A DNA stretch of 64,000 bases from Microthyrium microscopicum (lineage: Eukaryota). Positions 5,117-7,236 of this stretch are shown piece by piece (within the stretch, counting starts at the first letter, position 1; the number at the start of each line of letters is the position of its first letter). The translations under genes and the position numbers were made by a program. The notes under the pieces were generated by a model, which made no database searches, had not been told where the DNA came from, and saw only the letters and a list, made by a program, of their open reading frames with translations. The DNA is taken from assembly GCA_010405405.1 (NCBI GenBank), contig MU004233.1:1067122-1131121 (forward strand), given 5' to 3'.

Positions 5117-5718
5117 TGTATATACAAGAACAGTCTTTGAGGGAGAAAAAGGTTAAAAGAATGGAATGGTCCAGTTTTGGTGGGAAGGCGAGGTGTAAAA
5201 GGCAGACAAGTATGCAGTGATTACCCAAGCACTCGAGGTGTGATATGAAGCATGAGATGTAGTGGGTCACAGCAACCACACCATGTGAGATTCCAAAACC
5301 AGTCAGTGGTCCCTAATTTGAGCTTATTGAATTGATAGAATGAGGTTTCAGGGTGCAAAATGATGTCTTAGGAAATGGAGAGTTGATGGAGATGGTGATG
5401 TAGGAGAAGACGCGACGGCGTTGTTGATGTGCACTTTCTTAATTTTCACGTGCCAAGCCATGGTTACTTAGTAGGCAGGAGCTCACAGATCAGTCACTTT
5501 GAGGACGCCGTATGGGCATTAAAGGAGGCTTTGTATTTGGCTATATACAATGTGAATCTACTCCGCGATGTTTATGGCTTCGTTTGTAAGGGGTAGGATA
5601 AACTTCGGCCTTCACCAATTTCGTTGGTTTTGGGAGGCATGAATTGAGAATTTGCTTGGGGAAGTCACTAGTACAAAAGCGGCTAGCGTAACTTCATCCT
5701 GCATCTTTCGCCCTTTGT

Positions 5719-5731
5719 CCAATCAGATAAG
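5719..5731 (+). promoter_or_regulatory. Overlapping CCAAT box and ATCAGATAA GATA element upstream of ISU1 (candidate iron-responsive site)
   Basis: CCAATCAGATAAG lies about 190 bp before the ISU1 ATG; ATCAGATAA matches the ATCWGATAA consensus of SreA-type GATA repressors. Confidence 0.4.
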
Positions 5732-5915
5732 ATCATCTGGTCGGCAAAGAATTACTTCAATCGTCACCATCCGGCCTTTCATGCATTACTCTCCTTCCAC
5801 TTTCCCATTATCAACACTCCAGCCTTCAAACAATCAAATCGCTACCTAGGACATATCAATCGATCAATCTCAACCACTGATACCACTCAAAACTCGCACT
5901 TCCCTCTCACTCATC

Positions 5916-6664
5916 ATGCAACGAACGGTGGCAAGAGCATCCGTCATGGCGGGGACGACCATGATAAGAGCCGTACGACCACACATTCAATCCACAACAA
6001 GGAGAATACCCTCAACAATCTCCTCAAACATCCAGCGCCGCTCCTACCACGAAAAAGATAAGCTCCTCCCCTCTCCCCTCACAGCCGCCCTCTCACGGGA
6101 TCTCCGCGGGCCCAATACCGCAATATGCCCTCAATGTATGAGCTCAGAACACTCCGCTGACATGCCTAGCACTCATCGACCACTACGAGCGCCCCCGCAA
6201 TGTAGGCAGCATGGCCAAGAACGACACCGACGTCGGCACCGGCCTCGTCGGCGCACCAGCCTGCGGTGACGTGATGAAGCTGCAGATCCGCGTCGACCCT
6301 GACACACAGCGCATCTCGGACGTAAAGTTCAAGACCTTTGGATGTGGCAGCGCAATTGCAAGCTCGAGCTATTTGACGGAGTTGGTACAGGGCATGACGC
6401 TTGAGGAGGCGGCACGCATTCGCAATACGGAGATTGCAAAGGAGTTGTGTTTGCCACCCGTAAAATGTGAGTATTGATGCCCTGAAATGGATATCGAGAA
6501 TGGGGTACTGATTAGTTGTTTTAGTGCATTGCTCGATGTTGGCAGAGGATGCGATCAAGTCGGCGATTTCAAACTACTATGTGACGAATCCTACGCATAA
6601 GCCAACCAGTTTGGCGGGTACGGCGGCACCGATGCCGAAAATTGAGAATGTTGCTACTGCCTAA
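5916..6664 (+). CDS. ISU1: Mitochondrial Fe-S cluster scaffold protein Isu1/IscU, 3 exons
   Basis: Arg/Ser/Thr-rich presequence; exons 5916-6057, 6173-6466, 6525-6664 give YHEKVIDHYERPRNVG...GAPACGDVMKLQI...FKTFGCGSAIASSS...LPPVKLHCSMLAEDAIK. Intron 1 is AT-AC, intron 2 is GT-AG. Confidence 0.95.
6058..6172 (+). other. Predicted non-canonical AT-AC intron of ISU1 (115 nt)
   Basis: Donor AAAG|ATAAGC, branch GCTGAC at 6156-6161, acceptor TAGCAC|TCATC; removing it yields G+TC = Val and restores YHEKVIDHY. Confidence 0.75.
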
Positions 6665-7236
6665 AGTCAACGCACAGATAAATTGATTACTGGAACCGGG
6701 TTTGCTATGGGCGCTGAATCTTATGGCCTTTTGCTCGTGGGCTTGTACCGAATACGGACCATCGCTTGACATAACTTGCAGAAGCCTGTCAAGATAGCCA
6801 TACTGATTTCGAGGATGGGAGTTTGAGACGGATCACAAAATTCTGGCGTAAAGCTCCGCATACTCTCCCCTATGTGCAATAAACAAAAAATAAATAAAAT
6901 GCTCTCAAATTGAGTATGGTCATGAAGAGATATGTGACTATGACAGCGACATAGGTGAAAAATTTGTACAATGAAAGGGCAGCCTGAGCAGTTCAGTAGA
7001 TGAATGAATTCAACTATGCCTTATCGAATGGTGAACAGAATCATGCTGAGCGATTCTAGTCTCTAGATCATGGCCTGATTGTCCGCCACACTCACATCTG
7101 TGGCAAATAAATTTGATATATTCGGAGAAGAGGGAACTTCTTAACAAACGTTTGACATGATTCCTTCATTATACTTCATGCTATGCTAACGCTCCAGAGC
7201 TTTTCATTCATCCCATCATGACGCCGCCACAGACAC

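Follow-up and report, generated by a model that had tools for sequence, protein, structure and literature searches.

Evidence for a conserved U2-type AT-AC intron in the ISU1 gene of Microthyrium microscopicum and related Dothideomycetes

The window analysed here is a stretch of 64,000 nucleotides (nt) from contig MU004233.1 of the fungus Microthyrium microscopicum (assembly GCA_010405405.1, positions 1,067,122 to 1,131,121 of the forward strand), and all positions given below count from its first letter. The window carries the gene ISU1, whose product, as judged from the translation, is the mitochondrial iron-sulfur (Fe-S) scaffold protein IscU/Isu1. The first intron of this gene (intron 1) has AT and AC as its terminal dinucleotides, and is very probably a constitutively spliced intron of the U2 type that is conserved in the class Dothideomycetes. 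The joint of a transcript-like contig, the form of the errors in related public proteins and the genomic sequences of related fungi all bear on this reading, and are described in that order.

The spliced junction and the ISU1 gene

Two public sequencing runs, designated X1 and X2, were mapped to positions 5400-7200; neither is recorded as RNA, and their RNA status was guessed. One contig assembled from X1 (607 nt, mean word depth 4157) falls on the window in three pieces, 5839-6057, 6173-6466 and 6525-6618. Its first joint (6057>6173) skips 115 nt with the termini AT..AC and has 219 letters on the shorter side; zero letters are common to both sides of the joint ('both' = 0), so that the cut cannot be slid, which fixes A6058-T6059 and A6171-C6172 as the intron termini. 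The second joint (6466>6525) skips 58 nt with the termini GT..AG. X1 cover is limited to positions 5839-6890 and falls to zero on either side, in bins 5400-5826 and 6925-7107. Because both introns are missing and the cover is confined to the gene, the contig was taken to be a spliced copy, and its behaviour fits that of complementary DNA (cDNA), the RNA label itself being a guess. No other junction was found among the assembled X1 contigs. The X1 depth is 0 in the bin 6071-6131 and no contig lies inside intron 1; contigs drop rare variants, so a minor amount of unspliced RNA is possible. Run X2 (share 0.05) gave a single contig of 247 nt, which covers 6755-7000 only and lies away from intron 1.

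A preliminary description, made from the letters of the window, had placed an AT-AC intron in ISU1 at exactly 6058-6172, and the X1 joint bears this out. It had also stated that no GT donor follows the YHEK codons, and the sole GT within 6040-6175 does lie at 6136. The YHEK codons end at 6056, G6057 is the last base of exon 1, and exon 2 opens with the letters TC ATC GAC CAC TAC, so that removal of 6058-6172 (ATAAGC...GCTGACATGCCTAGCAC) rebuilds the conserved Isu1 sequence YHEKVIDHYERPRNVG, as had been proposed. Two other cuts named in that description were recomputed with the outcome that it gave. An AT..AG intron at 6058-6169 produces YHEKALIDHY, and a 34-nt GT-AG intron at 6136-6169 is in frame, inserts 27 foreign residues and changes V to L. 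Both models are ruled out by the X1 joint, the former by its resumption at 6173 together with the YHEKALIDHY protein and the latter together with the 27 foreign residues.

The spliced three-exon model comprises 576 nt and encodes 191 amino acids (aa) and a stop codon. The product matches TIGR01999 (IscU family) over its full length with 210.6 bits (curated cut-off 192.4) and PF01592 (Pfam NifU_N) with 176.3 bits (cut-off 22), and yeast Isu1 (PDB 5t0v) aligns with it straight through the junction YHEKVIDHY (E 1.9e-60). The motifs GAPACGD, GCGSAIASS, LPPVK and LHCS define the IscU/Isu1 proteins, and all of them, with the three cluster-ligand cysteines, are present in the spliced model in alignment with yeast Isu1. 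The features of the gene are shown in Table 1.

Table 1 Features of ISU1 and of its first intron in the window
Feature	Position	Strand	Description and basis
5' untranslated region, minimum extent	5839..5915	+	X1 transcript contig begins at 5839; first in-frame ATG at 5916
ISU1 exon 1	5916..6057	+	Mitochondrial presequence to ...RRSYHEK, plus the G that opens the Val codon; translation and contig piece 5839-6057
5' splice site AAG|ATAAGC	6055..6063	+	Reading of the sequence
Intron 1, 115 nt, AT..AC, phase 1	6058..6172	+	Contig joint 6057>6173
Branch-site motif GCTGAC	6156..6161	+	A6160 as the putative branch point, at a distance of 12 nt from the final base of the intron; motif match
AG 3 nt upstream of the true 3' end	6168..6169	+	Unused in the assembled transcript; the contig resumes at 6173 rather than at 6170
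ISU1 exon 2, ..IDHYERPRNVG ... LPPVK	6173..6466	+	Two of the three cluster-ligand cysteines; translation and contig piece
Intron 2, 58 nt, canonical GTGAGT...ACTGAT...TAG	6467..6524	+	Contig joint 6466>6525, GT..AG
ISU1 exon 3, LHCSMLAEDAIKSAI... to stop TAA at 6662-6664	6525..6664	+	Spliced model; contig piece 6525-6618, further contigs to 6890

The sole identical public protein is P0009 (181 aa, source Microthyrium microscopicum, a Dothideomycete), which is an exact substring of the spliced model from residue 11; the AT-AC junction is correctly used in it, and the public annotation of the species therefore already uses this junction. The start of P0009 corresponds to the second ATG, at 5946. 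Close relatives and metatranscriptome proteins begin MQRTVARA..., as from the ATG at 5916, and position 5839 is the start of the transcript contig, for which reasons P0009 is probably short by 10 residues at its N-terminus and 5916 is the likely translation start.

At position 6585 the window has C and the high-depth X1 contig has A, which changes ACG (Thr) to AAG (Lys) in ...NYYV[T/K]NP...; Lys occupies this codon in the relatives examined. Variation between strains, misassembly or editing could account for the mismatch.

Public proteins and genomic relatives

Three homologue searches gave 287 proteins, fragments of the gene itself being excluded from the tally. A clean junction, YH.[K/R][V/I].DHY, was found in 221 of them and a bacterial-type start in 9. 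In 50 proteins an insertion follows directly after YHEK, and its first residue is D in every case (50/50). Since exon 1 ends in G and the insertion begins with D (GAY), the next base would be A followed by a pyrimidine; a GT donor that was read through would give G. The LDHY sequence is kept in 44 of the 50 insertion models, the residue preceding LDHY being L in 43 and S in 1. The codon for this residue consists of the last intron base and the two bases that open the exon (TN), so that for L the last intron base would be C or T, G at this place giving V. In the other 6 insertion models a false acceptor was used and LDHY is deleted. A further 7 of the 287 proteins have a foreign N-terminus running into ...L|[L/I]DHY. 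Read in this way, the 57 models (50 and 7) are what gene finders would be expected to output when an AT..AC intron is unusable to them. The expectation that standard gene finders would mis-annotate the intron thus holds for these 57 related models among the 287, and fails for P0009, the model of the species itself, which is right at the junction.

Source names were available for 53 of the 57 mis-modelled proteins, and all 53 are from Dothideomycetes (lineages were spot-checked). They include Pleosporales (Alternaria, Bipolaris, Curvularia, Exserohilum, Parastagonospora, Didymella, Ascochyta, Stagonosporopsis, Macroventuria and others), Botryosphaeriales (Phyllosticta, Saccharata, Botryosphaeria), Dothideales (Aureobasidium) and Gloniales (Glonium), and also Coniosporium. 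For several species a wrong model and a clean one stand side by side, namely Parastagonospora nodorum (P0139/P0158), Phyllosticta citriasiana (P0043/P0049) and Paraphaeosphaeria minitans (P0177/P0214), and a clean model therefore does not mean that the intron is absent.

The top-scoring of the matches longer than the query was P0003 (312 aa, source the firefly Lamprigera yunnana), which contains two IscU-like stretches, ...HCSMLAEDAIRAA... and then a second, ...YHPKVIDHYENPRNVG; the cause may be a tandem duplication, or else a gene model that was fused in this insect assembly.

Metagenome contigs were scanned with a degenerate DHY.RPRNVG pattern, which gave at least 120 stretches, 80 of them with full flanks. 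This pattern excludes NNPRNVG and NKPRNVG forms, and leaves Eurotiomycetes and some Dothideomycetes unsampled. A tblastn search matched 115 of the 120 listed stretches, and 31 were inspected, consisting of 27 with at least 80 % identity in exon 2 and four (L016, L078, L024 and L066) with 75-79 %; the remainder of the listed stretches, outside the inspected set, were bacterial-looking or distant. One locus (L092) was unclassifiable, with 5 bases upstream of the motif.

Among the matches listed, at least six loci, five of them distinct (L032, L100, L095, L071 = L020, and L107), carry an AT-AC intron in unspliced, genomic-type DNA at exactly the same codon position as intron 1 of the window. The carrier donors are AAG|ATAAGT, ATAAGC or ATGAGT, and the window and the five distinct carriers (6/6) share the arrangement AAG|AT[A/G]AG[C/T] ... 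GCT[A/G]AC ... AC|T. The six introns are 115-145 nt long, and the distance from the branch A to the 3' end is 12 nt in five and 11 nt in one. In a forced alignment of the six introns the mean identity was 44 %, and the invariant columns were nearly confined to three places, namely the donor, the branch motif and the AC at the end. An AG lies 3-4 nt upstream of the terminal AC in five of the six distinct sequences. By exon 2 identity, L107 is 100 % identical to a Paraphoma protein and L100 is 99 % identical to a Corynespora protein (both Pleosporales-like), and L071 and L095 are Dothideomycete-like; taxon assignment by exon 2 identity is unreliable at such conservation.

Intron 2 was used as a control. 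It has GT..AG termini wherever it could be read, and its branch motif lies 9-22 nt from its end in seven distinct loci, one of which (L046) has two candidate branch motifs, 11 and 6 nt from the end. This sample of seven loci is too small to prove a special constraint on the 11-12 nt of intron 1. In a Trichoderma survey (PMC4324775) the branch-to-3' distance was 16.5 +/- 7.0 nt.

No intron was found at the YHEK|V site in a set of loci recognised as genomic by another, unspliced intron, namely the Leotiomycete-like loci L120, L090, L049, L046, L009 and L010, the Xylaria-like locus L114, and L118. Seven other loci (L041, L099, L108, L103, L002, L112 and L119), judged to be basidiomycete-like from their sequences, have no intron at YHEK|V and have one after ...VGTGL, at the equivalent of the middle of exon 2.

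The related sequences also bear on whether the AT-AC junction could be an artefact, either through assembly errors at 6058 and 6172 that hide a GT..AG intron, or through a joint made during reverse transcription or assembly. The two bases A6058 and C6172 are outside the cover of the X1 contig, as are the intron bases in general, and one transcript-like run covers the junction, which leaves some room for this explanation. Against it, A and C occur at the same two positions in five independent metagenome contigs, which makes an assembly error at both bases very unlikely, and D rather than G follows YHEK in each of the 50 insertion models. The joint shares no letters between its sides, unlike template-switch artefacts, and it restores the conserved protein exactly. 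The artefact explanation is effectively refuted, and its probability is negligible.

Splice signals and the spliceosome involved

The donor of intron 1 (AAG|ATAAGC) agrees with the donor common in fungi, and with the U2-type consensus, at positions -3 to -1 and +2 to +5, and departs from it at +1 (A) and +6 (C). The motif GCTGAC is the only match to NCTRAY in the 115 nt of the intron, and neither the U12-type donor (ATATCC, ATATCCTT) nor the U12-type branch motif TCCTTAAC occurs in these 115 nt. The consensus donor of U2-type AT-AC introns is /ATAAGT, and the U12-type consensus is ATATCCTT for the donor and TCCTTAAC for the branch site (PMC5029451). The U2-type AT-AC class was defined in a survey that counted 24 such introns among about 610,000 introns of five species (PMC1557818). 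On these motifs, the claim of the preliminary description that the signals are of the U2 and not the U12 type stands, and removal of intron 1 by the major (U2-type) spliceosome is strongly indicated.

Several points weigh against the reading of intron 1 as an intron of the major spliceosome conserved in Dothideomycetes. Run X1 is RNA by guess only, and it may be the same data that lie behind P0009, in which case the contig would be no separate evidence beside P0009. The errors in the public proteins reveal only that +1 is A and that -1 is a pyrimidine, which is less than the full dinucleotides. A clean Eurotiomycete query returned 74 new proteins, 72 with YHEKV and 2 with YHERV, none of them mis-modelled; such a query ranks clean models first, so that the search neither shows nor excludes the AT-AC intron outside Dothideomycetes. 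Of the proteins compared, the one nearest to the AT-AC carrier L032 (95.8 %) is from a Leotiomycete, and the class boundary is not firm. The branch point A6160 is putative, being a motif match, and the distance of 11-12 nt from branch point to 3' end is also that which is typical of U12-type introns.

This spacing, with the AT..AC termini, speaks for an intron of the U12 type, removed by a minor spliceosome, or a relic of one that is served by a cryptic minor spliceosome. The motifs speak against it, the donor being ATAAGC and not ATATCCTT and the branch motif GCTGAC and not TCCTTAAC. Across more than 3000 eukaryotic genomes that were surveyed, no convincing minor introns were found in Ascomycota or Basidiomycota, which are reported to have lost most or all of the minor small nuclear RNAs (snRNAs) (PMC10639083); the statement of the preliminary description that ascomycetes lack the U12 spliceosome rests on this literature. 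No Rfam family reached its gathering score in the 64-kilobase window, which says little about this explanation, because the snRNA genes would be sited outside the window. A U12-type origin appears close to refuted by the motifs, and is highly improbable.

Removal, persistence and possible regulation of the intron

The following account is proposed for intron 1 as a U2-type AT-AC intron. Recognition of the donor by the U1 and U6 snRNAs would rely on positions -3 to -1 and +2 to +5 and tolerate the A at +1, and U2 would pair with GCTGAC. Post-catalytic spliceosome structures confirm an interaction between the first and last bases of the intron. In the second step of splicing the A at the first intron position would partner C, and not G, at the last, much as G partners G in ordinary introns, in a non-Watson-Crick interaction, the genetic basis for which is the suppression between A1 and C at the last position in yeast (PMC5029451). 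The AC located 12 nt past the branch A would then be chosen over the AG at 6168-6169, 3 nt upstream of it; that is, this AG would be skipped and the AC at a nearly fixed distance from the branch would be used because the A of the first position pairs with the C of the last.

The AT..AC pair may have arisen once, at or before the radiation of the Dothideomycetes, in an ancestor of those sampled. A single reversion, giving GT..AC or AT..AG, would cripple the splicing of an essential gene, and the state would thus persist; ISU1 is essential in organisms in which it has been studied. Because any single reversion would damage splicing, the AT..AC state would be left only by precise loss of the intron. 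Only the signals and the spacing from branch to 3' end would be constrained, and the interior of the intron would drift freely. It counts against this account that freezing by epistasis of this kind is an argument, reached by inference.

The preliminary description had suggested that a weak intron in this gene could act as a rate-limiting and possibly iron-responsive switch. In this explanation the removal or retention of intron 1 is tuned, for example by iron, to set the dosage of Isu1, and selection for such control maintains the odd termini. In keeping with it, a whole fungal class has preserved the termini, the branch motif and the distance from branch to 3' end, but not the interior. Retention of the intron, as had been described, shifts the frame to a stop, found at 6267-6269, and unspliced RNA would be unproductive. 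There is an in-frame alternative AG 3 nt upstream of the 3' end, and in yeast the splicing of engineered AT-AC introns is poorer than that of the wild type. On the other side, the only assembled X1 form is fully spliced, at the depth of 4157, and conservation of both termini is expected without regulation, each single-step reversion being deleterious, so that the two-mutation barrier is the simpler explanation of their conservation. Leotiomycete-, Xylaria- and basidiomycete-like lineages have no intron at the site. A more conventional route to iron control would be the promoter, in which a CCAAT box overlaps ATCAGATAA at 5719-5730, some 190 nt before the start codon of ISU1. This is a motif match, and ATCAGATAA is the only match to ATCWGATAA in the window, where 2.5 are expected by chance. 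The combination of CCAAT and ATCAGATAA resembles the sites of fungal iron regulators (a GATA-type repressor, and the CCAAT-binding complex with HapX). The switch found no support in these results and is improbable.

A related reading, also unlikely though slightly less so than the iron switch, holds that the AT..AC pair is used and not just frozen. In it the major spliceosome, for want of an AG towards which to scan, would pick the 3' site by measuring a fixed 11-12 nt from the branch as the minor one does, a slow A-C second step would throttle the output of ISU1 through second-step factors or the state of the cell, and the upstream AG would be a decoy or an element of early recognition. If this were true, Dothideomycetes would have post-transcriptional control of the dosage of the Fe-S scaffold. 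The proposed account, in which intron 1 is constitutively spliced and held in place by the two-mutation barrier, is strongly preferred over both. On this account, a non-canonical intron can stay locked for a very long time in a gene of the essential type.

Comparison with known systems

The rare U2-type AT-AC class is known, and what is added here is the class-wide conservation of the ISU1 intron and its systematic mis-annotation. A literature search that paired AT-AC with Isu1 found nothing, and one that paired it with IscU found only an unrelated study of a human pseudoexon; subscription journals and the supplements of surveys were outside the search. For the public databases, at least 57 of the 287 Isu1 models contain spurious insertions, LDHY deletions or false N-termini, and a single rule could put them right.

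Introns of the same rare class have been counted in other Pezizomycotina, with AT-AC junctions in Fusarium graminearum (PMC3577648) and in Trichoderma longibrachiatum (69 of 14305 junctions, PMC4324775); the available parts of these surveys give counts and do not treat ISU1. According to a cross-kingdom survey, AT-AC introns are far less frequent in fungi than in either animals or plants (PMC7072748), and AT-AC cases in fungal xylanase genes have been hypothesised (PMC1557818). U12-type AT-AC introns resemble intron 1 in their terminal dinucleotides and in the short distance from branch to 3' end, but differ in donor and branch motif, and the host lineage is reportedly without minor introns and minor snRNAs.

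The closest likeness among animals is to the vertebrate U2-type ('type II') AT-AC introns, for example those of SCN4A and SCN5A (Wu and Krainer; Sheth et al. 2006, PMC1557818), which likewise have AT..AC termini on a U2 donor resembling /ATAAGT. Both are of a very rare kind and have been long conserved, from human to pufferfish in the one case and across a fungal class in the other. Unlike the vertebrate introns, intron 1 of ISU1 is short (115-145 nt), has the fungal branch motif CTRAC located 11-12 nt from the 3' end, and belongs to a lineage reportedly without a minor spliceosome; it is known here from sequence.

Two cases from Saccharomyces cerevisiae, an ascomycete without U12 machinery, also invite comparison. 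The engineered A1/C(last) actin intron (Parker and Siliciano 1993, cited in PMC5029451) is likewise spliced as AT..AC by the major spliceosome, and so is the natural AT-AC junction of RPL30 (PMC5029451), but the latter is a side product of 1-2 % with a donor unlike /ATAAGT. The actin case is a laboratory double mutant, whereas in ISU1, a gene of the essential type, AT..AC is the only productive junction, has a donor that fits the consensus and has been kept across many genera. In the yeast cases and in ISU1 alike, the AC would be used rather than a nearby AG because the first and last bases of the intron pair. Intron 1 of ISU1 would thus be a natural and deeply conserved counterpart of the first/last-nucleotide suppression of yeast, and, being such a case in a lineage reportedly without a minor spliceosome, it would offer a clean system for the choice of non-AG 3' splice sites by the major spliceosome.

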